Source of the DNA: Isurus oxyrinchus
Lineage: Eukaryota
Assembly: GCA_026770705.1 (NCBI GenBank)
Contig: JANJGN010000026.1
Span: forward strand, 31,124,001 to 31,188,000
Length of the DNA stretch: 64,000 nucleotides
Reading direction: 5' to 3'
Each line of letters starts with the position of its first letter. Positions within the stretch are counted from its first letter, which is position 1. Under the pieces are notes generated by a model. The model worked only from the letters and a program-made list of their open reading frames with translations. It made no database searches and was not told the origin of the DNA. Positions 4,986 through 61,151 of this stretch are shown piece by piece. The position numbers and the translations under genes are program-made.

Positions 4986-6000
4986 TTACGATGCATTGCA
5001 ATAATTTAACCAAACAGCCGCTTCTCACACTCTCTTGACTTCAAGTAAACAGCATAGTTTGTCACCCCTCATTACTAAGACATCAACGTATGGTTTCAGA
5101 CTTGTTCTGGAAATACACAATAAGTAATTGCGATGCTGGTGATTAGGTTGGTTCTGTAGAGCGTTTTGCTGCATTTCAGCAAAGAAAAGGTTTGTGTGTG
5201 CACATCGGTGGAGCCTAACATAACAGGGATTTTCTCTGCCACCTTGAAGATAATTGGGAGTGCAGGTTCTCTCCAGGAAGCAGAAAATCTGTCAAGTTAT
5301 TCTGGATTGTTGTTTTCCATGAAAGTTTTATCTTTATGCTGGAAAAGCTTCAGGTTGTCAGCCTTCTCTGTCACATTCTTCTGCCCTCCAGAAAGTTTGC
5401 AATGTTATGACAATAATGTGATTATGGGAAATTTATCTCTTACTTTGCCCTTGTGACAGGATGTTAAGGAAACTGGCCGACAGCCACAAAAGTTTAAACA
5501 AATCAAAGAACAAAGTCAGAAATTAAGGTAGAGAATCCTAGTCAGTCATCTATCTGCATTACAGCCAACACAGCTTCTGATGTTCTGATCTAATCAACTA
5601 TTTTATCTGCATCCCATCTGAAAGGTGCATCTCCGGACCTGCAGTAATCCCTCAGTTCTGCACTGCAGAATCAGCCTGATTGACTGGGACTTGAAGCCAG
5701 AACCGCCTGATTTAGAGGCAACAGCGCCACCAAGTGAATCACCATTGTCGCAGGGCAAGTAGAATATAAGTTTGGGTAACTTGGATTATTCATGGTTAAT
5801 TTTTTACTATTCAGGAAACAGCGGTGTTTAAACAGGAAATGGAGGAGGAGTCAGGTTTCTGAAGGGGAAGATGGTGAACCCCAGCCTGACACTGGGTTCC
5901 AGCCTGTTTAAAAAGTGAACGGAACAGCTTCAAATTAACAATTAGGAAGCAGTGTCGGGGAGTCTTTACAAGGCTGGAGAAACTTCTACCGAAAAAGCAA

Positions 6001-6469
6001 ATGATGGTGCTCTTCCTGTACCTCTGTTTGTTTCTAGTTAGCTTTACTTGTGAGTGCTGATCATTTATTGATCGTAGAGTCATTAATATTTTAAATATTC
6101 TGGTTTACTTTGTTGCATTTTAAAATGTCTCTTTTCATCGAGATTTGCTCCTTTATAATTTGCTCGTAGGTGTCCGGGCCAGCATTGTGCTAACCCAACC
6201 GGATTCCATCTCCAAAAACATTGGTGACACTCTCCAACTGTCTTGTGTGGTGAGTGGGTACGATATCAACCAACATCATATGCACTGGATTAGAGAGGTC
6301 GCCGGGGGAGGGTTGGAATCCATACTCGCTTATAGGAAAGGGTACAACACCTCTTACGCGCCTGGAGTTCAAAGTCGAATCACTTTTTCAACTGAATCTT
6401 CCACAACCTATGTTGAGTTGAATAATTTGAAAACCGAGGACACGGCCATCTATTACTGTGCGAAGCAGT
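6001..6469 (+). CDS. IgH-like V gene segment (leader exon 6001-6049, V exon 6170-6469), intact
   Basis: MMVLFLYLCLFLVSFT, GTGAGT donor, ...cgtAG acceptor, phase 1. V reads SIVLTQP..LSCVVSGYDINQHHMHWIRE..GLE..YAPGVQSRITFS..LKTEDTAIYYCAKQ, with canonical C, W and YYC. Confidence 0.93.
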
Positions 6470-6508
6470 CACGGTGAGAGAAACCAAGGCTGGACCCAGG
6501 AAAAAACA
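6470..6508 (+). other. 23-RSS of the IgH-like V
   Basis: CACGGTG, 23 bp, GAAAAAACA. Confidence 0.8.
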
Positions 6509-6841
6509 GAACGAGGGGGAATCTAAACGCTCCAGGCAGAACACCTCGTTCAGAAACAATGTTCGTAATACAGTCTGACTCTGAACCTCGAGTTACCCCT
6601 TAACAAATGAATTTCAGCAAAACAATTGTTTGCTTTCTCATGTGTATTATGTATAGCAAAAATGTTTGGAGACCCAGGGGCTAACGTTTCAACAATATGC
6701 TATTGAAGGATTTTAGAAGGACTGGCGATACATTCCTATCAGTTGGAATGAATCTGTCCTGAACACTTCTCATCGTTGACAGTAAAGCAAACGCTCGTGA
6801 AATGGAGTCTGAAAGTCAGGATTTGATCAGAAAGGGAATGC

Positions 6842-6917
6842 AGTATTTGTGCGGGCGTGTTGTCACTGTGATACTATGGGGTGGGGTATCACATTACTAA
6901 CTGTCAATACAAAAAAC
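6842..6917 (+). other. D segment (coding 6871-6889 ATACTATGGGGTGGGGTAT) flanked by 12-type RSSs
   Basis: AGTATTTGT-13bp-CACTGTG, D, CACATTA-12bp-ACAAAAAAC; G-rich core typical of shark D segments. Confidence 0.85.
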
Positions 6918-7245
6918 CCGACAGAACTTATAGGCTCAGTCTGGATCACTGACTGCGAGTATGAGTTCGCTATACATGTGGTGAAGCAGTGTTGATATTG
7001 TAATCCAGAACTGAAACTCTCGCCGGGTTTAAGAGAGAGAGAGAGAGAACTGCTAGATAATTATTCAGGAATCAGTTGGTGATTGGAAGAAGCATTCAAT
7101 TTGGGCAATCAAATGAGGAAAGACTGATGTATAAACATGAAAATTAATGAAATTGTACCTTTGTAATGCTTTAGAAATCTATTGTTAGTTGTGCGATGTT
7201 ACTTTCTAAAAGAATGGCCTCTTTCCTCAATTTTATGCAGGACCC

Positions 7246-7344
7246 ATTTATTGTGTGGCCCATTGCAGGGAATGTAACACAGTGGTACTGATAGCCTTGA
7301 CTACTGGGGACAAGGTACCAAAGTTACAGTGACGGCAGGTAAGA
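7246..7344 (+). CDS. IgH-type J segment (coding 7285-7338) with 23-RSS and splice donor
   Basis: ATTTATTGT-23bp-CACAGTG, then TDSLDYWGQGTKVTVTA and G|GTAAGA phase-1 donor; WGxG is the JH signature. Confidence 0.92.
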
Positions 7345-14769: not shown

Positions 14770-15170
14770 GGACAGCATGGTGTTTCACTCAGTATCTAAC
14801 ACAGTAACCCATGTTACATCTGCCCTGAGATTTTGGAGGGAACATTACTCTGTATTTAACGTGTGCTACACAAGACCTGGGGAATGTTCAATGGTACAGT
14901 GTAAAGGGATCCTTGTTCTATTTATAGCCTGTGTTGCGCCTTACCGAGGAATGTTTGATGCAGACAGATTGATGGGACTTTATTCTCCGTATAATCAGTC
15001 CTTTACCTGTCCAAAGCGAGGTTGCTGGGATGGGATTTTACTCTGTATGTAACTGGCACTGTACCTGCACTGAGAATTTTAAATGGAACATTTGAGAGGG
15101 AATATTACTCTGCATCCAATCCGTGCCTGTACCTGCCCTGCGAATGCTGTGCGAGGATCTTTACTTTGTG
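14770..15170. repeat. Degenerate ~65-bp tandem repeat interrupting a V pseudogene
   Basis: Recurrent ..ttactctgtat(c)taac..gtgctgtacctg..gggaatgtttgatgg.. units. Confidence 0.6.
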
Positions 15171-15199
15171 CAGCAACAGTTTCTTTCGATACTTAACCT

Positions 15200-15296
15200 A
15201 TTCTTTACAAAGACATGAGTACTGACAGTTTGGTGTATTATTACTCTCTCTGAGACTCACAGTGATGTGGAGCAATCTCACCACCGTGCAAAAACT
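15200..15296 (+). pseudogene. 3' end of a TCR alpha/delta-type V pseudogene with intact 23-RSS
   Basis: STDSLVYYYSL*D (cf. DSAVYYCALRD), then CACAGTG 15258-15264, 23 bp, GCAAAAACT 15288-15296. Possible leader at 13995 and FR2 remnant at ~14700 are weaker. Confidence 0.75.
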
Positions 15297-29140: not shown

Positions 29141-30203
29141 GATTTAATAATTCTATACATTTTCTACTTGAGAAACAAAAAATCCTTAAATAGGAAGGAG
29201 GTGAGAAAATGGAAGAACTGAAGGAATGCCTTTAACAGAATAAATGGACAGGAAACACGAAATTTACTCTTTGATGGCATGTGGGCGTCGCTAGCAAGGC
29301 CAGCGTTTGTTGCCTATCTCTAATTGCCCTTGAATTGAGTGGCTTGCTGGTCCATTTGCGAGGGAGGTTAAGTGTCAAGCATATTGCAGTGGCTCTGCCC
29401 AGCCATTGATTCAATGGTGGAATTGGCCAATCATGGTGCTGTGACTGATGGAAAGTGTTGGGGGGTCGTCGATTCCAAGGGGCAAACTTCCATCATCTTT
29501 GTGAAAAGTGCATTCAACAATGTTTGTGGGTCGTAACCTCTACATAAATGCAGCCGGTTATTAAGATAGAACGGCCCTATTTTAAGAGGGATCACTGTTG
29601 AGGTACGCATGTTCTCACCCACTGCAGCGCGGCCCGTGAACACAAAGGGACCTTTCCCAGCTGCGGTAATTGTGGGAGATGCTGACCTCCATGGAAAGAT
29701 AATTGGTGGAGTGAATCCAAATCCAAACTACCCTCAGCTGGGAACTGCCCGGTCTCTTGCGTGTTCCCTCGAGGGGACGGAATCTCGCAGCCGATTGTAG
29801 CCCGAATGCTGGAAATCACAGGAGATGATGAAGGTTTATCAAGTCAAACGGGGAAACGCGGTTTCAACAGCAAAAGGGAAAGAAACTAATTTGCTGTTAT
29901 CTGAGGTAAAAGGCAGCAATAAATTCACCCTAGATTACAAATCGGTACATTATGAATTTTTCCAGGAAAAAGGAGATGAGAATGTGGAATAATTTCATGA
30001 ACTATGTTTGAAGGCGAATTGGACAGGAGAAGATACCAAGAATTATAAGGAGCGAGAAGGAAATGCAGATTTAATGAGTTTAATCACTTCATTCTGTACT
30101 GTAAAGTTGTAAGAGCCACTGAAAATATATTCATGAACAATATTTGTTCTCCAAATTTCCATGCATTGTGTATCTCCATTTGTCTGCAATCCCACGATGT
30201 TCA

Positions 30204-30550
30204 GGATTTTGTACAGCTCTCTCCGTGCTGTTTCACTATGTGTCTGTAATCACACTATGTTCAGGATTTTGTACAGCTCTCTCCATGCTCTGTATCACTG
30301 TGTGTCTCTCATCCCACCACGTTAAATTTTTGTATAGCTCCCTCCCGTGCTCTGTATCACTGTGTATCTGTAACCCCACCATGTTCAGGTTTTTGTACAG
30401 CTCTCTCCGTGCTCTGTATCACTGTGTGCCTCTAATCCCATCATGTTAAATTGTTGTACAGCGCCCTCCGTGCTCTGTATCACTGTGTGTCTGTATTTCC
30501 CACCATGTTCAGGTTTTTGTACAGCTCTCTCTGTGCTCTGTATCACTGTG
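30204..30550 (-). repeat. Tandem array of six ~61-bp units, each containing a 23-type RSS
   Basis: Heptamers at 30544-50, 30481-87, 30420-26, 30358-64, 30296-302 (CACAGTG) and 30234-40 (CATAGTG). Spacers 23, 23, 23, 24, 23, 21. Perfect ACAAAAACC nonamers at 30512-20 and 30388-96. Confidence 0.92.
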
Positions 30551-30856
30551 CTCTGCGCCGACTCAGTGCACAGTAATACACAGCGGAGTCGCTCAGTTGT
30601 AGTTTGGAGATAATTAACCGGCTGATTTTCTTGGCAGAATCGATAGAAGCAGAAATTCTCTCCCCGACAGCATTTTCTTTATTCTCCTCTCCTGAAGTGT
30701 GTCTCTGAAGCAGATATTCCGGAGCCTGTCCTGGGGACTGACGGTACCAGTGTACTGTGTACTGACAGATACCTGAATATTCACAGCTTAAAGTAACGGT
30801 GTCACCGGCAGCAGAGGTTTGTAAAGGCGGATTCTGGAATATCAGGAGACGGGAAC
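30551..30856 (-). CDS. TRDV: Leaderless supporting TCRdelta V of NAR-TCR type, intact
   Basis: Acceptor ttttcacccttcag (phase 1); GSRLLIFQNPP..VTLSCEYSGICQYTVHWYRQSPGQAPEYLL..LQLSDSAVYYCALSRR. Non-canonical CDR1 Cys, no leader seen upstream, perfect 23-RSS. Confidence 0.9.
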
Positions 30857-31579
30857 CTGAAGGGTGAAAAATTAACATTTTGCTTTTGTTTAGCTACTGC
30901 TGATATGGGGAATTTGTCAATCGCGCGAACAGCTTTGTTTTTTTTTTATCTCGATTTGAAGCCTGTTCGAACGCTGCTCATTGTTACTGAACTATGGTCA
31001 ACTGGGGAATGAGATGATATTTTCTCTTCCATAGCGAATTCCTCCGATCAGGACTTTACTATCTGAATGGGTTTTGGGAACAGATTCAGTAGTAACTTTC
31101 AAACGGGTGATGTATCTGTTCTGAAGCAGAAAAAATGCAGGAATATGGAGAATATGCATGAGTGGTGGGAACAATTGGATTACACTTTTAAAGGGACAGC
31201 ACTTACACGATGGGCCGGATGTCATCCTTCCGCGCTGTATGGTTCTATTATGTATATTAGATGTGTTTTTATTTTCCCTGCTGAGAGACAACCCCGAGGG
31301 AACTTCTTATTAACAGTGAAACAGTCAGTTTCCAAAAACTATTTGTCAGACAGTGACCCAGATATAACGCATCACTGCGCACAGCAAGATTCAACAGAAT
31401 GCGATTGCAATTCGGCAGCACCAATCGGGTCAAACAGATAGTGAATATCGATGGTGAAATGACACCCATTAGCTTCATTTTAACACTTCTCAGTTGCTTC
31501 CATCTGCTCTTGTGTCTATTAGTTTATTTTCTTCGATCAATCTCTGTTTCCCCATTTCTCTTTAATTTGAAATATTTAT

Positions 31580-32520
31580 AGTTAGTTTCATTTTATTTTT
31601 ACATTTATTTTGCACTATTTGTACGTCTTACAATCGTGGGAACTTGTCCCAATCTCTTTCAGTTGTCGGTTGGCTTCAGTCTGTTCAGTTTCCGCAGTGG
31701 TTTTACTGTTACTCACTGGGAACTGCCTCTTCCGCCTCTCTGACAATTTCAATTCTTTCGCCTTTTGACTGATTTCTCGGCGTTCTCTGGGCGGAGTTTT
31801 CTCTAAGTTTTTCAATGTACTCCATCTGCAGGAGAGAGACCAGCCATTCGGCACAGTGACTTATGTTGTGGGTATTCTCCATACCAGTACCCCCAACCCG
31901 AAATCTAATTGACCATTTCCATCCAGCTCCCTGAGCCGCCCTGTTCCGTTCTCCCTCCTGTATTTTCAGCCTTCCCATAAATCCACCAATAATGTCTGCT
32001 CCAACCACTCAATGTGGCATCAAGTTCCACATTCTGATGCGTCGTAGCGCACATTTTTCTTCTTAATATCTTTGTTCCGTTAGTGACGATCTGATATTAA
32101 TGTCCTACTGACCTGGACTCATGCACCAATATACAGCTGTAACCCATGCACTCCATTAAACCCGTTCATAATTTAAAAGATTTCTCTGAATTCTCTCCCT
32201 GGTTCTATGTTTTCCAGAGAAAGGTGACCCAGCCTGTTCAATCTTTCCAGAGAGTTTTGCATTTTTGCTGATTTCTTTTCTCAGAACTTTAAGAAATCAA
32301 TGCAAAGAATCTTACAAAGAGAAGCAGGAATGGCCATAACAACTTTCAAACCTGCTCGGACGTTCAATAATATCGTGGCTGATCTTCGACGTAAGCATCA
32401 CATTCCCATATTCCCAATTTATTTTAATAACCTAACATCTATGGAACACTCCCATTCATCCACTGAGTATCCGCAGCTCTCTGAGGTATTGAATGCAACA
32501 GGTTCAGAACAGTAGCCTCA
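31580..32520. repeat. Segmental duplication unit, paralogous to 37540-38520
   Basis: Shared blocks such as ttcagtctgttcagtttccgcagt.gttttactgttactcactgggaactgc and gaaatctaattgaccatttcca. Confidence 0.9.
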
Positions 32521-32602
32521 GGAAATACCCAGCAGTATCTGCTCTGTCAGCCCGTTGAGAATATATGTTCCAATGAGATCAGCTCACATTCCTTGAAACT
32601 AC

Positions 32603-33524
32603 TGTTGCGAAAGTATAATGAGTTTTATAATATTTTTTTTCTGGTTTATTCTGCAGTATGTTAATGGATGTAAGTATTGTTGGCTCTGTCTGTGTGATTT
32701 TATTGCATTTGGAGTCAAGTGTGCAGCAAGCTTGAAATTATCAAAGGAAGCTATTTGTGTGGAAATATGCTTGAAATGTTAAGACGTAAATGTGGATGGG
32801 GCTTAGCATGTAAGTGTAAAGGGAATTTGGGCTTCAAAGGGATGCTAGGCTGCATAAAATTAGCTAGATAAGAAAGGCTAAGACGTTCGTGTTAATGTGC
32901 TCCTAAGGGAGCTGACAATATTGACAACATGAAAGTTTTCATATAGTGAGGAAGATGCAGTTTTAAAGACATATGGGACAATAGAATTTACATGTTAAAG
33001 AGAGAGAAACATACATACGGGAGAATGAAAAGTGATGTGAGGAGAGGGCCATGTAAGATCTAACATGAATTCGTGAAACAACCTTTATGAAGCAGCCAGA
33101 CATTTTTGCATATGTCTGCTTTGTGATGTTAGTGATGTTGGGGAAGCCATTTGGAATTCCACTGTCAAGTGTGTGCTACGTTAACTTGCTGGTTCTGTTT
33201 TAAATCAAAAATCTATTTGGACTGTTGCCGTTAAGGGGTGTATAACTGGGTGTCAAGTTAATTCAGAATTTTAGGAGTTGTTATGGTAGTAAATACCTTG
33301 TCATCTCATGTATGTGTTTGGAATATTTTATTTTGTGAATAAATCTTCTAATTTAATTTCTTAAAAGTCTCTAAATGTCTTGCTGGACTCATTACTTCAG
33401 AATCAATGCAAATATCGATTGCAAAACCGTTGTGACAGAGCGATGAAGTTTCCCTTGTGGATTTGACCCACCTAGCACACATCACCTGCCATGTGATATC
33501 ATAACTGGGGGCTCTTTGCGGGAT
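32603..33524 (+). mobile_element. LTR plus tRNA-Pro-like primer-binding site (LTR retroelement remnant)
   Basis: TGTTG...CATAAC followed by TGGGGGCTCtttgCGGGAT (33506-33524), close to PBS-Pro TGGGGGCTCGTCCGGGAT; related LTR at 49183-50309. Confidence 0.7.
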
Positions 33525-33769
33525 GTTAGAAATTCCTTGATTAGTTCGGAGATGTTCAATCTTAAGGCTACGAGTGTCAGAAGAACATTGAATCCAGGAA
33601 TTGGTATGGGGCTTTTAAAGTGGTGAGACTGTAAAAGTGGCTGTATCCATAGCACACATCATCTGACACATCATAACACAAGGGAATGCAGATTGTCATT
33701 CCTTCACCTCTTCTCATAGGATAAACCATTTAACTCAGGAAGCTGCCTGATGAAACTTTGTTCACTTCC

Positions 33770-34680
33770 TTCAACACATATAGATCTTTTCTCGATTATG
33801 AATCTTAACCTTTACGCAGCACATAGAGTGGAGTACAGTGCAGTCCTTCCCACACACAATACTTCTACCAATTGGTTTTAATACCGAGGAGTACTGATTC
33901 ATCAGCTCAAGTGGCGGTTCGTACATAGCTGATAAGAAGTAGGAAGTTTGCTTCCTATGTTTGGGCTGGCGCCATGAGACGCCTTGCGGTCTGCAGTTAA
34001 TATTGAGGCTTCCCAAGGCAACTCCCTGCTCACTGTATATCACCGTGCAGCCACTTCTGGGTCTATCCTGTCGGTAGCACAGGACATGCACAGGGATAGT
34101 GATGGTGCTGTATAAGACATTGTACGTTATGATTCCGTGAGCTTGACTCTGCCAGGTTGTTGCTTGACAAACATGTGGGAAAGCTCTCCCAGTTTTAGCA
34201 CATACTTCCAGATGTTAGTAAGGAGGACACTGAAAGGATGGACAGGCCTGGGTTTGCCATTCTCATTTCCGAAGCCTAGGCAGATGGCCGGTGGTATGCC
34301 AAGTGATGTGGTCCATGTTCCATCCTTTTCTTTGAGACTTAGTAACCATTTGATACAAATAAGTAGCTTGCTTGGCCATCATTTCACCAAGCACTTAAGG
34401 ATAAACCACAACGCTTTGTGTCTGAAGTCATATGTAGTTTAAACCAGGTAAGAACAGCAGATTTCTTTCCATTAAGCAGAGTATAGTGCTGGGCAGTTCG
34501 AAACAATCGGCAGTAGTTTCATGATCACCATACTAAGAACAACATTTAACTCCTGGTGCTTGGATTCCACCAGCTGCTGCGGTGGGATATGAACCAGAGT
34601 TAGCACACAGAGGATTAACAGGGCTGCTGGGTTACTTGTCTAATGACAGTACCACGAGGCCACCCCTCCCCATGCAGATT
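33770..34680 (-). mobile_element. LINE fragment plus tRNA-derived SINE
   Basis: SINE part (34370-34670) resembles 13280-13640; upstream part resembles a LINE endonuclease region. Confidence 0.6.
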
Positions 34681-34726
34681 ATTTGCCTGGATACTTGGTA
34701 ACACGTCGCGGTTTTCAGTCACTTAC

Positions 34727-35071
34727 CAGCTGTGACAGTCACCTTTGTCCCGGATCCGTCTACAGAACCATCTTTCCAAACGGAACCACATCCATATTTA
34801 TACTGAGCTTTGCAGTAATAGGTGGCCGTGTCTTCAACTCTCACATCCCGAATTTCCAGCGAAAAAATCTTTTCTGCTTTATTTATTGACACAACAAATC
34901 TCCCCCCGCTGGATATCCGCTCGTGCTCAGTCCCGGTCTGGGTTTGTCTGAAGAATTGTCCGTCCTCTAAACGATGAGAATTACCTTTGAAAGCACAGGT
35001 GATGATGAGGGACTGACACTCCTTCCTGGTCACCGCTGCCGGGGTCTGTACCACTGACTGACTGAAAGAGC
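34727..35071 (-). CDS. Germline-joined NAR-TCR-type VDJ exon (345 nt, phase 1/1, open frame)
   Basis: Acceptor tttaatttccag; SFSQSVVQTPAAVTRKECQSLIITC..YYCKAQYKYGCGSVWKDGSVDGSGTKVTVTA; G|GTAAGT donor. No RSS between the V and J parts. Short NAR-like CDR2 region and FR1 Cys. Confidence 0.92.
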
Positions 35072-35317: not shown

Positions 35318-35812
35318 ATAAAAACAGAAAATGCTGCAGAAATTCAGCAAGTCTGGCAGCATCTGTGGAGATTGTAACAGCGTTAACATTTCCAATCGCT
35401 GTGGAGTGGTGTTGTTGCTAGGCTAGTAGTCCAAGGACGCAGGGTAATATCCTGTGGCCCCGCGTACGAGTTTAGCCACGGCAGATGGTGGAGTTTGAAT
35501 TGAATAAAAATCTGGAATCAAAAGTCGAATAGGATGACCATACAACCATTGTCGATTGTTGTAAAACCCATCAGGTTCACTAACAGCTTTTAGGGAAGAA
35601 AATCTGCTAATCTTAGCTGGTCTGGCCTACATATGACTCCAGACCCATAGTAATGTTGTTGTCTCTGAAATACGCGGATAGCCAATAAATGCTGGCCTTG
35701 CCAGTAGTGCCCACATCCAAAGAATAAAATAAAAGGTGCTGCCAGAACTGCTGAGTTATTTCCAGCATTTATTGTTTTTATTTCAGGTTTCCACGGTGTT
35801 CTGCTTAAATGT
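35318..35812. mobile_element. Composite insertion (Penelope-derived ends around a tRNA SINE) in the promoter of the germline-joined V
   Basis: Absent from the paralogous promoter at ~41100; flanked by AGGAGA(T/C)TGCAGC at 35305-35317 and 35813-35825. Confidence 0.8.
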
Positions 35813-37019
35813 AGGAGACTGCAGCTCTGAACTGCTCAGGGAGACTGGAACTCAGAGCTGGACTGAAATATTTTAGACAGTACAGTTGATTTGCAGAGGA
35901 CGATGTCCCGCAGATGATTGATTAGCTGCCCCATTCCCATCTCTCTGCTTGTGTGTTTTCTGAACAAGTGACAGGTTTAAAAACGGAACTAGCAGTTTCA
36001 TATTGCTTCGTTGGGCCTGTAAGCCTGATGTGAAGTCCCCTCTCCCATTTGTCTGATGTACAGTGCCCAGTGTAATGGGGCAAGGAAGGTGGATTTGTTT
36101 CCATTAGTGAAATCTGCAGCCCTCATTCTCCCACAGTAATGACCTGGCAGATCTGTCCATGTGTGTTTGGCAAATGGTATTTTATGAGAATGGAGTGTGA
36201 AAGAATCCCTCTTTCCTCAATTTTATTCTAACTGTCATGAAAAAACAGAAAATGCTGGAAAGAACTCGGCAAGTCTGGCAGCATCTGTGAAGAGTCTGTA
36301 TAACTCTTCTTCAGAGCTGCCTGTGCGGGAAATTATTAAACATCTCCCTGAACTGGCTGGTGGGTCTTCAGCTGAAAGTCTGTTCCAAGGGAAGGAGCCT
36401 TACACCCGCCATAGTCCAGGAACTGAGGATCAGATTACAATGTGAGACAGTCCAGAGACTTTGCCAATATTAAGGCGGAAGTACAGAAATACCACAAAGA
36501 ATAAGCTCTCTACTTCATTGAAACAAATGCTTGCTGCAACCTTCCCCTATGACTTGCATTTAAAATGATGTTTCCAGAAAACAATGTTTGATTTCTAGGT
36601 CTGGTTTATTCAGAGTTTCCAGTTGTAGTGTTAGAACATGAAGCCACACTTAGAGGACAGTTGAAATGGGGGCAAACACTGTGTTTGGGACTTGTTTAAA
36701 GTATCACACCCACTAACTTGGTGAAATCTGTTAGTTGTGTTTAAACTGTCCTGGATCTAACAATTCGTTCTGTTGAAGTGAACCTTGTGAACTGGCCGCA
36801 GTCAAATGCTCCTGGAAACTGACGGGTTCAAGGACATGGGGCTGCTCAGTAATCCAGGCAGGCATGAAAAGGGCAGAAAAGGGCCAAGAAACTACTTCAG
36901 GAGCAGAGGACCTCACACTATCTTGTTTGACTGTACATCACATAAACATGGCCGATCGTACGTCGCTCAAAAGTGGTCGATTGTTTAATCGACCTTTGAG
37001 TAGCTCCAGATGGGCTGCC

Positions 37020-37310
37020 GCTGATCCCTAATGTGCAATAAAAGACATAAGCATCATCTAATTCATCTAAAACTAAAATAAAAACCTGAAAAAGCCTTTC
37101 TGCTTCATCCACAAGTTTTGCACATTAAATATTGTCCAATTTCCTTCTGGTTTTGAAAGCTACTGGCGCGAAATGGTGCAGAACAGCGCATGACATAAGC
37201 ATGTTTTGCCTCAGAGCTACCACAAATACAAATTGCATTTTAAAGCACATTTAGTACAATGAAAGGTCCCTTCAGCAGCTAGTGACAGTGATCTTCGTGA
37301 AGCATGAATC
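37020..37310 (-). pseudogene. Probable highly decayed supporting-type TCR V
   Basis: Acceptor cgcctctcag; remnants SLAAEGT..KCALKCNLYLW* (CDR1-position Cys) and VDEAERLF..LDDAYVFYCTL. Same position relative to the duplicated block as the intact V at 30856. No RSS. Confidence 0.45.
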
Positions 37311-38279
37311 CTGAGAGGCGGATGTGGCCGATCACCCGAGTCACCGTCTGCAATGTGGGAACACGGATACATTTTGGCATCATAATTACCAACACTCAGA
37401 TTGTAGCAGTCTCATTTTAAGAGACCACGATTCTTTAAATGGAAGGAGAAATATTATCTGAATGTATTTCAATCAGCATTTATTTGGAAAAAAAAACATA
37501 ATTTCTTCTATCAATAGGTTTAAATTTTTTTCCAATTCCACTTATTTTGATATATTTACATTTAGTTTCATTTTATTTCTCCATTTCCTTTGTGCAGTTT
37601 GTGCTTCTTGCATGGGAACGTAGCAATCGTGAGAACTTGCCCCAAAGTCTCTCAGTTGTCTGTTGGGTTCAGTCTGTTCAGTTTCCGCAGTAGTTTTACT
37701 GTTACTCACTGGGAACTGCGTCTTCCCCCTCTCTGACAATTTAATTTTTTTTTTCCGCCCATTTACTGATTGACTGGTTGAAGTTTTCTCGAATTGTAAT
37801 TTAACATAATATCTGCCAGAATAGGAATAATCCATTCCGCTCAAATGATTTATGCCTGTGTACTTACTGCGGACCAGCCCCCATCTGTCTGAAATCTAAT
37901 TGACCATTTCCAGTCAGCTCCCTGAGTCAGTCTGTTCCGTTCTCCCTCCTGTATTTTCAAGTCTTCCCATAAATGTATCAATACTACCTGCTCCAACCAC
38001 TCCCTGCAGCAGCAAGTTCCACACTCTGACCTGCCTGTCTTTACACTTCTTCCTAATGTCATTATTTGTTCTGTTAGTGACTGTCTTATTCTAATGGCTC
38101 TAGGCTCACCCACAAATAAGCAGCTATTCCGCAAATACCCCAATGAACCCACTCGTTATTTAAACGATTTCCATGAATTCTGCTTTTCTTTCCCTGTTCT
38201 CCAGAGACATGATGCCCGGTCTGTTCAACCTCTCCACAGAAATGTAGATTATTCCTGATTTCTTTTCTCAGAAGTGTAA

Positions 38280-38840
38280 CAGATCAGAGCAGTTAATGTA
38301 ACAAACAGAAGCAGGAGCGGCCACGTCACTTTTCAAATCTTTTCCGACATTCAATAATAACCTGACTCATCTCCTAACTCAGCATCACTTTGCAGCAATG
38401 TCCCCATATCCCTTGATTCTTTTAGCATCCCGAAATCTATTGAACGCTTCCTTTAAAGCATCCAACTACTGGGCATTCACAGCTCTCTGAAGAAGAGAAT
38501 GTCAGAGGTTCACAACAGTGGCTTCACTGAAGAAATTTCTCTTCTTCTCATTTCTCAGGATCAAGTCCTTATTCTGAAACTGTGACCCCTAGTTATAGGC
38601 TTCTCAGCCTGGGAAGACACCCACCGGGAATCTATCATGTCCTGAATATTAGATGTTCTAATGAAATGACATCTCATTCATCTAAGCTCCAGCGAACATA
38701 GGCCCAGACAACTCAATCTCTTCTTATACGACAATCCCTTTATCTCAGGGATCAGTCTGATGAACCTTTGCTGCACGCCCTCCAATGCATGTAGATCCTT
38801 CCTTAAGTAAGGAGACCAAAACTTTACAAAGCATTCCAGA
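38280..38840 (-). mobile_element. CR1 LINE 3' fragment
   Basis: LECFVKFWSPYLRKDLHALEGVQQRFIRLIP. Confidence 0.85.
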
Positions 38841-39740
38841 CTGGAGCCCATTTCAGTCCTTCCTTCCATTTAACTCACTCACCCGCACTGGGCTCGGATT
38901 GTACTTTGATGGGCCAGAGATCCACCAATCCTTCTCTCGCTTTCGATGAATTATTTATTGCTGCTTCTAAATGAACATTCCCCCAATTTACAACTTACAA
39001 TTGTTTCCTTATGTTCCTGTTCTCCTTTATAAGATTAATGCATCACCCTCTCTATCTCACTGCACTGTGTTGTTTCACACACAGTAATCAGGGATACAGA
39101 TAAATTACAGCAATCACATCTCTCAAACATCTACATTCAATATAGAGAAGCGGCTGCAGTTCCAAACTTACACATTTCAGTCTGAGGGCGGAAAAGTAGG
39201 AAAGTGTTTGGTTATGTGAAAGAAATGGCGGGGACAATGTCACTAATTTCAGTCACTGATTGTCCAATAATAAAATTCTATCTGGACCCACATCAGGATT
39301 TCTTATATCTGAAGGCCGTTGTTTCACTTTCCCGTTTTTCTCCCGGGTCAGGTATGGAACGAGCCGCTGCAGGTATCCGAACTGGCCGCAGTTGTGCTGA
39401 GTTTATTCACCCGGTACCTCATTCCGCGGCTCGGACTGCAATCTGCTGCCCAGGAGAGAGCTCTGTGAACCCGCTCCCGGGCTCTAAGGGACAGACAGAG
39501 CTCCGTCGGTCACAGTTAGCACCGGGAGTGGAGTCCGGATTGTCGACAATCTGCGCTCATTAAAAGCGATTCAAAGTGTGAGAGTCCGTGATGTTGATGT
39601 TGTCACCGATGTGCCTGTTAAACCAATAATGGTCCAGATTCTGTCAACTCCCACATCCCACCCAAACTCCACTGATATCAATAATAAACTGATGGTGAAC
39701 GTTACCCGGGACAGGCTATAACCCGGCGGGGTTTGGAACT

Positions 39741-39838
39741 ACTTACCGGCTGTGACAGTCACCACTGTCCCGGATCCATCCACATATTTAGTATACCACC
39801 ACAGTTACACCGCTCTCAGTCTCCCCGGTACAAGAACC
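39741..39838 (-). CDS. NAR-TCR-type J segment (coding 39799-39747) with 23-RSS
   Basis: GGTTCTTGT-23bp-AACTGTG, then WYTKYVDGSGTVVTVTA and G|GTAAGT phase-1 donor. Confidence 0.92.
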
Positions 39839-45448: not shown

Positions 45449-46534
45449 GGCAATGGTGCGAGTTGTCCCGAGGCCTTTCTCACTGAGGGTCTCAGCACAC
45501 AGTAATTCACGGGGTTGTCAGCGACCTGAAGCCCAGTCAAGGTAGAAGCAGCTATATTATTGGGTTAAAACAAAAAAACTGCGGATGCTGGAAATCCAAA
45601 ACAAAAACAGAATTACCTGGAAAAACTCAGCAGGTCTGGCGGCATCGGCGGAGAAGAAAAGAGTTGACGTTTCGAGTCCTCATGACCCTTCGACAGAACT
45701 TGAGTTCGAGTCCAAGAAAAAGTTGAAATTTAAGGTGTGTGTGTGGTGGGCGGAGAGATAGAGAGACAGAGAGAGAGAGGTTGGGGGGGGTGGTTTGGGG
45801 GGGTGGGGGGTTGGGGGTGTGGTTGTATGGACAAACAAGCAGTGATAGAAGCAGATCATCAAAAGATGTCAACGACAATGGTACAATAGAACACATAGGT
45901 GTTAAAGTTAAAGTTGGTGATATTATCTAAACGAATGTGCTAATTAAGAATGGATGGTAGGGCACTCAAGGTATAGGTCTAATGGGGTGGGGAGAGCATA
46001 AAATATTTTAAAATATTAAAAAATAATGAAAATAGGTGGGAAAAGAAAAATCTATATAATTTATTGGAAAAAAAAGAAAGGGGGAAACAGAAATGGGGTG
46101 GGGATGGGGGAGGGAGCTCACGACCTAAACTTGTTGAATTCAATATTCAGTCCAGAAGGCTGTAAGGTGCAGCCTAGTCGGAAGATGAGGTGTTGTTCCT
46201 CCAGTTTGCGTTGGGCTTCACTGGAACAATGCAGCAAGCCAAGGACAGACATGTGGGCAAGAGAGCAGGGTGGAGTGTTAAAATGGCAAGCGACAGGGAG
46301 GTTTGGGTCATTCTTACGGTATTTTTCGAATGACTGAAAAGCGATGTTTAATGTTCTTTCCACAAGAATGTGCCCGAATTTCGAAATCTGGAGCTGAGTT
46401 CTGGTTTTGACGATGAAGCTGCAAAAATTAATTCACATCGGAAGTTGAATAGATGCAATTTATGCTCATCGTGATTCCTTCCAGTTATTGGGCTTCTGTT
46501 GACCACTCTCCGACGGAACCTCCGGAACTCAATC
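45449..46534 (-). pseudogene. TCR alpha/delta-type V pseudogene split by a Penelope-like insertion
   Basis: Acceptor atttctgcag; GLSSGGSVGE..*LEGITMSINCIYSTSDVN*FLQLHRQ..APDF..HRFS, insertion, then LTGLQVADNPVNYCVLR; mutated heptamer CTCAGTG at 45487-45481. Confidence 0.8.
45565..46318 (-). mobile_element. Penelope-like element 3' fragment
   Basis: PVACHFNTPPCSLAHMSVLGLLHCSSEAQRKLEEQHLIFRLG; closely similar to 47375-48110. Confidence 0.88.
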
Positions 46535-60926: not shown

Positions 60927-61151
60927 NNNNNNNNNNNNNNNNNNNNNNNNNNNNNNNNNNNNNNNNNNNNNNNNNNNNNNNNNNNNNNNNNNNNNNNNNN
61001 NNNNNNNNNNNNNNNNNNNNNNNNNNNNNNNNNNNNNNNNNNNNNNNNNNNNNNNNNNNNNNNNNNNNNNNNNNNNNNNNNNNNNNNNNNNNNNNNNNNN
61101 NNNNNNNNNNNNNNNNNNNNNNNNNNNNNNNNNNNNNNNNNNNNNNNNNNN
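60927..61151. other. Assembly gap (N run)
   Basis: N characters following a CA-rich repeat. Confidence 1.

Follow-up and report, generated by a model that had tools for sequence, protein, structure and literature searches.

Between the rearranging V-D-J segments and the leaderless supporting Vδ of a NAR-TCR cassette lies a third, germline-joined V exon (V2), which is inherited in its joined form and whose own leader is dead. As the best overall explanation we tentatively propose that V2 is a pre-joined NAR-type exon which would be spliced in frame after the rearranging NAR V-D-J and ahead of the supporting Vδ, and that the stack so formed would carry a disulfide ladder. Splicing from J1 to V2 and from V2 to Vδ would make V2 the invariant middle domain of a TCRδ chain with three V domains. 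In such a chain the cysteine in the V2 CDR3 (Cys94) would probably bond the FR1 Cys of the V1 domain above, and the FR1 Cys of V2 would bond the CDR1 Cys of Vδ. A functional three-V chain is the likeliest single reading of the locus, with what we judge to be just under an even chance. Given such a chain the ladder is fairly probable, and the chain together with the full ladder is rather doubtful.

A NAR-TCR cassette with a third V exon

NAR-TCR is reportedly the doubly rearranging TCRδ of cartilaginous fish, said to have been described by Criscitiello and co-workers in 2006. Six-frame and RSS scans of the window (the whole stretch of DNA analysed, 64,000 nt) identified a cartilaginous-fish IgH/TCRδ region holding a NAR-TCR cassette on the minus strand, in the order L1, V1, D, J1, dead leader, V2 and leaderless Vδ (Table 1). 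Excerpts of two papers give as NAR-TCR features a leader-bearing V with an a-b loop Cys and no WYRK Trp, and a leaderless Vδ with a CDR1 Cys (PMC1845163, PMC12227049). V1 has a leader, identical in sequence to leaders in NCBI NAR-TCR gene models, and its own RSS-flanked D and J; Vδ has no leader, a CDR1 Cys and a 23-RSS. Both V1 and V2 contain RKECQSL, with the a-b loop Cys, together with FFKQ/FFRQ, and lack the WYRK Trp, which marks them as NAR-type V. The FR1 Cys of V1 and V2 and the CDR1 Cys of Vδ, on which the original prediction of a ladder was built, are all present. Numbered by residue, the cysteines are 18, 25 and 87 in V1, 18, 25, 86 and 94 in V2, and 24, 30 and 95 in Vδ.

Table 1. 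Features of the NAR-TCR cassette, listed in minus-strand order.
Feature	Positions	Strand	Remarks
Leader exon L1 of V1	41061-41019	minus	MGILLVFTLCVCLP; donor GTGAGT; TATAAA box upstream
NAR-TCR V1 exon, unrearranged	40869-40587	minus	FR1 (a-b loop) Cys 40816-40814
V1 RSS	40586-40549	minus	22-nt spacer; directly after V1
D segment	40198-40182	minus	TGTATGGGTGGGGAAGT; 12-spacer RSS on both sides
J1 23-spacer RSS	39838-39800	minus	
J1	39799-39747	minus	WYTKYVDGSGTVVTVTA; phase-1 donor GTAAGT
V2 dead leader module	35292-35220	minus	Leader 35262-35220; altered TATA-like box, stop, damaged donor
V2, germline-joined NAR-TCR V(D)J exon	35071-34727	minus	345 nt; open; phase 1/phase 1
V2 cysteines	FR1 35018-35016; canonical 34997-34995, 34814-34812; Cys94 34790-34788	minus	
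YGCG in V2 CDR3	34796-34785	minus	TAT GGA TGT GGT; Cys94 codon 34790-34788
Supporting Vδ, leaderless	30856-30551	minus	Phase-1 acceptor; CDR1 Cys 30767-30765
Vδ 23-spacer RSS	30550-30512	minus	

Rather than exactly two somatically rearranged V domains, the cassette has a germline-joined third V exon between J1 and Vδ. No Vδ remnant was found between J1 and V2 (35320-39750), so V1 is without a supporting V of its own and a rearranged V1 must either splice to V2 or jump it. No leader-like exon for Vδ was found in 30400-34730, and no Cδ in the 64,000-nt window.

Further receptor-like sequence was observed in the window. Directly behind Vδ, the minus strand carries six tandem 62-bp units (30181-30550), each with the heptamer and nonamer of a 23-RSS-like signal. 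On the strand opposite the NAR-TCR cassette, 5999-7340 (plus) holds an IgH-type leader, V, D and J; the V (~6184-6470) has the heptamer CACGGTG, the D lies near 6865-6889 and the J reads WGQGTKVTV. Also on the plus strand, 14900-15296 is a decayed V-like stretch without an open frame, with a near-consensus 23-RSS at its end (15258-15296). Short decayed V-like pieces at 45484-45564 and 46320-46421 (minus) are matched by a Cetorhinus gene model. An assembly gap, a run of 225 N, occupies 60927-61151.

V2 is an inherited exon that has lost its own leader

The V, junction and J of V2 are contiguous and in frame, and the junction contains no RSS heptamer. Both splice sites are sound, the acceptor resembling that of V1 and the donor reading GTAAGT, and the phases match throughout: J1 ends in phase 1, V2 is phase 1/1 and Vδ starts in phase 1. 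The linkers that lead from a J into the next V differ by one residue between V2 and Vδ. Upstream, the V2 leader reads MGI*, with TAA at codon 4 (35253-35251) and GTGGCT at the donor, and TACAAA stands at 35292-35287 where TATAAA is expected, a site that we take to be the TATA box. Judged from its sequence, this leader cannot serve to express V2. The locus has the anatomy required for a three-V chain: an open and symmetric exon, a dead own leader, and no other Vδ for V1.

The nearest named proteins were from Carcharodon (94% over V2), which makes a lamnid-like shark the probable source of the DNA. Four DNA sequencing runs were aligned to the window at 88% likeness, and contigs of all four cover the V2 junction. 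Contigs from X6 and X9 (organism B, two studies) had 0 differences over 34753-34842, and the X1 contig (organism A) had 1 difference over 34753-34859. The V2 join is inherited and not somatic, because identical contigs occur in organism B in two studies and the same junction occurs in Carcharodon gene models; a somatic rearrangement and an assembly artefact were ruled out on the same evidence. As organism B is only ~1% from the window near the V2 junction, its identity says little on selection. Three of the four runs (X6, X9 and X15) also hold contigs that are ~10% diverged, with 18-19 differences in 184 bases, and that run ungapped across 34650-34833. The changes listed there, K109E, V103A and S102Y, match the second exon of Carcharodon P0007 and would belong to these diverged contigs. 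None of the listed differences falls in the Cys codon or the leader stop, which does not fix the Cys state of the divergent copies.

Damage is confined to the promoter and leader of V2

Alternatively, V2 may be the relic of a germline-joined NAR-TCR V that once stood alone; its promoter and leader would have died, and it would now be skipped or carried as a passenger, its Cys without a role. We consider this somewhat unlikely. On this account V2 lies behind V1-D-J1 since a deletion or unequal crossover took V1's own Vδ, and loss of that Vδ by deletion could have made the present layout by accident. Consistent with such an event, the introns of J1 and V2 share 71% identity as old paralogues, and their homology ends ~690 bp before the expected Vδ position. 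The stop and damaged donor of the leader and the changed TATA-like box also fit a relic, as do the joined exons that are only partial in two gene models (the first of P0007 and the first of P0009). Furthermore, a comparison of V2 with the full P0007 exon shows 17/114 residues changed, which is not clearly fewer than the 20-24 estimated under neutrality at 8-10% nucleotide divergence.

Against a relic, the promoter/leader module took all three lesions, while the exon and its two splice sites are intact. This module makes up 22-29% of a rough mutational target (P about 0.05-0.08, post hoc and conditioned on the first lesion). The ~10% diverged copies bridge the junction without a gap in the three runs that hold them, and two full exons of Carcharodon have open frames, a state towards which gene models are biased. 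In a rough neutral simulation (5,000 runs) the V2 exon was still open in 49%, 17% and 3% of runs at 1%, 2.5% and 5% divergence, respectively, with an indel rate that was taken from introns 15-24% diverged and is probably too high. The framework pN/pS between V1 and V2 (0.08/0.24) spans time before the death of the leader, and hence was given no weight.

Origin and conservation of the CDR3 cysteine

The CDR3 of V2 is fixed at 17 residues, and its junction reads YGCG, as the original prediction stated. That prediction had also derived the Cys from a Trp in the neighbouring D. The D does contain TAT GGG TGG GGA, which differs from the junction at three third positions, two of them silent and one exchanging Trp and Cys, but the match is within chance: the best 12-nt match of D to the 43-nt V2 junction is 9/12, a value equalled in 14.9% of 20,000 junction shuffles (P about 0.15). 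A gain of Cys94 by a Trp-to-Cys change was set aside as unsupported. The codon after the matched stretch differs at all three positions (TCC versus AGT). In 20/61 homologous proteins, three of them V2-like, Tyr occupies positions +4 and +6 counted from the second canonical Cys (Y-x-Y), and the first codon of the YGCG stretch, TAT, may be V-templated.

An older V subfamily, with models reading YRYRCGS, is the probable source of the CDR3 Cys, which would then have been inherited and reused. Three Carcharodon and Cetorhinus models (P0010, P0011 and P0201) combine a V2-like, GNSH-type CDR1 with the junction KAQYRYRCGSTVSKDAYE. Their 'STV' may be a read-through heptamer, and the genes may be VD-joined and still joining a J, fully joined, or products of annotation splices. 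In a tree of 62 V regions (83 columns), V2 grouped with P0008 and P0007 (97/88), while the placement of P0009 and P0010 was unresolved; P0011 and P0201 joined at only 85/74, and the link between V2 and this older RCGS family is not firm.

Conservation of the Cys had been proposed as a check, and here the outcome was mixed. Cys94 is kept in 3/3 Carcharodon exons with the V2-type junction (twice in XP_041031384.1 and once in XP_041031398.1). This conservation is shallow, as a neutral Cys codon would survive in 98% of simulations at 1% and 89% at 5% divergence. A CDR3-centred search found the V2 junction in Carcharodon only, among 18 matches.

Candidate partners for the spare cysteines

FR1 Cys was present in 63/63 parsed NAR-V domains (with a pattern that accepted only C or G there) and CDR1 Cys in 52/54 parsed supporting Vδ, the two without it being P0011 and P0201 (Cetorhinus maximus). 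CDR1 Cys occurred in 2/63 parsed NAR-V domains. One of these is the Heterodontus domain that is modelled behind a J and before a Vδ. Most other NCBI NAR-V models are unjoined genes whose junctions carry RSS read-through signatures (HS, TV, SLW, xLC), for which reason their CDR3 cysteines were given no weight.

Tandem arrangements were seen in two gene models. In Carcharodon carcharias, P0007 (XP_041031384.1) carries the V2-type junction in two successive exons (YGCSS and YGCGS) ahead of one Vδ, the first exon being partial in the model; this protein bears the automatic name DSCAM-like protein. In the horn shark Heterodontus francisci, P0009 (XP_067869961.1) is modelled as J, partial NAR-V, full NAR-V and Vδ. 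Both of its NAR-Vs share one junction, unlike that of V2 and without Cys, and the full internal NAR-V has a CDR1 Cys. P0009 is possibly an independent three-V cassette, as judged from one gene model that was noticed post hoc.

XP_041031398.1 is modelled as leader, V2 and Vδ, with a leader identical to L1 of the window. Were L1 spliced to V2, with the unrearranged V1 skipped, V2 would become the fixed N-terminal binding domain of an invariant two-V receptor, seated on Vδ, and its CDR3 Cys would be exposed, or paired with a ligand or a second chain. Besides this model, the compatible phases of L1 and V2 agree with such a receptor, as does the sister family that is modelled N-terminally with the same Cys, and excerpts of one study describe germline-joined Ig that is expressed in sharks (PMC5192425). 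However, the splices of XP_041031398.1 are possibly automatic, the good acceptor of V1, ~150 nt behind L1, would have to be skipped, and a free thiol remains. Overall, we regard an invariant two-V receptor as improbable.

A three-V chain could also exist without the ladder, V2 serving as a spacer and Cys94 being free, paired within CDR3, or linking two receptors. The original prediction had held that the ladder would leave no free thiol, a rule that related models break: the white-shark protein P0008 has two CDR3 cysteines (KCGCGS), and P0011 and P0201 are without the Vδ CDR1 Cys. This loss of cysteine parity favours a chain without a ladder, and the CXC of the white-shark copy might pair within CDR3. 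In P0010, P0011 and P0201, moreover, 'RCGS' lies in the CDR3 of a domain modelled as leader-bearing and N-terminal, with no FR1 Cys upstream, and the Cys appears older than the tandem layout. On the other side, the FR1 and Vδ CDR1 cysteines are so constant that a V1 FR1 Cys left without a partner would be out of the ordinary, and an apical Cys also occurs, in a different loop, in the internal V of Heterodontus. A spacer role without the ladder is distinctly unlikely in our judgement.

Structure predictions bear on the same question. AlphaFold2 (36 sequences) folded V2 as a V domain (pLDDT 88, pTM 0.79), with VNARs as the nearest solved folds. In the model, strands 82-94 and 97-104 make up a CDR3 hairpin in which Cys94 immediately precedes the turn. 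In Ig topology the CDR3 tip lies at the end that would face an upstream domain and the FR1 a-b loop at the opposite end. Cys94 and FR1 Cys18 are therefore at opposite ends of the domain, and the two spare cysteines of V2 cannot bond each other. An intradomain bond between Cys94 and a CDR1 Cys was ruled out, since the V2 CDR1 has no Cys. With the hairpin extended, Cys94 may stand out from the domain core by more than the CDR1 Cys of Vδ does, which counts against the ladder. For the natural V2-Vδ protein P0008 (43 sequences), pTM was 0.54 and the linker and FR1-Cys loop had pLDDT <50; neither the model nor a fold search with it yielded interdomain geometry that could be used, and this undefined stacking sits equally well with a chain that has no ladder. 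No NAR-TCR structure was among the best 60 of 2319 solved-structure matches. A complex prediction of V2 with a V1-like stand-in (P0015, residues 19-129) scored 0.08, weighing neither for nor against the ladder.

Discussion

A literature search returned no report of a three-V or germline-joined NAR-TCR, a subject on which the text and supplements of Criscitiello 2006 and Ott 2021 may bear. The cassette shares with NAR-TCR, as far as excerpts of the published descriptions go, a NAR-type V that has a leader, D and J of its own and stands over a leaderless Vδ with CDR1 Cys, and an interdomain disulfide between NAR-V and Vδ that is itself termed 'putative' (PMC1845163). It differs by the germline-joined, leader-dead NAR-V in between, which would raise the number of extracellular domains from three to four, and by an extra Cys that lies in CDR3 and not in CDR1.

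In marsupial TCRμ, according to excerpts of two papers, a rearranging N-terminal V is spliced onto a germline-joined Vμj (Vμ + Vμj + Cμ), so that, as with V2, an invariant germline-joined V would lie beneath a rearranging one (PMC3457774, PMC7615758). The same excerpts describe Vμj as VH-related and membrane-proximal, as pairing with Vγ, and as thought to have arisen with retrotransposition. V2, in contrast, is NAR-related, retains the intron of its leader and would have another rearranging V, Vδ, beneath it. In a TCRμ, VH-related V domains would stand on Cμ and the joined V would adjoin C, whereas V2 is followed by Vδ.

The four cysteines of V2 include none in CDR1, which sets it apart from VNARs with both a CDR1 and a CDR3 Cys; a CDR1-CDR3 disulfide is presumably the mark of type II. 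V2 does share with IgNAR VNARs a VNAR-like fold and a non-canonical CDR3 Cys, which in VNARs forms a CDR3-CDR1 or CDR3-framework disulfide, as given in excerpts of PMC3149040. V2 has no partner Cys in CDR1, FR2 or FR4; the one Cys left over for such a bond belongs to the a-b loop, which in Ig topology lies at the far end of the domain. Germline joining as such is common in shark Ig, where excerpts of PMC5192425 list IgM1gj, joined light chains, and VD-J, VD-DJ and VDJ clusters. These genes, like V2, have segments joined in the germline and a leader intron that is kept. They are antibody genes on their own leader, whereas V2 is an exon of a TCRδ cassette whose own leader is dead.

More generally, sharks might stack at least three V domains in TCRδ by means of germline-joined, leaderless NAR-Vs, each stapled by an extra loop Cys, placed in CDR3 in lamnid sharks and independently in CDR1 in the horn shark; we consider this generalisation unlikely. 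If the three-V chain is real, it would be a longer TCR architecture, in which the binding domain stands off from the membrane by one further Ig length. Internal NAR-Vs also offer a natural test of the putative disulfide between NAR-V and Vδ: if they always come with an apical Cys, the a-b loop Cys would be a docking staple. Laddered stacks, if true, would represent a modular, disulfide-laddered extension of the TCR stalk.
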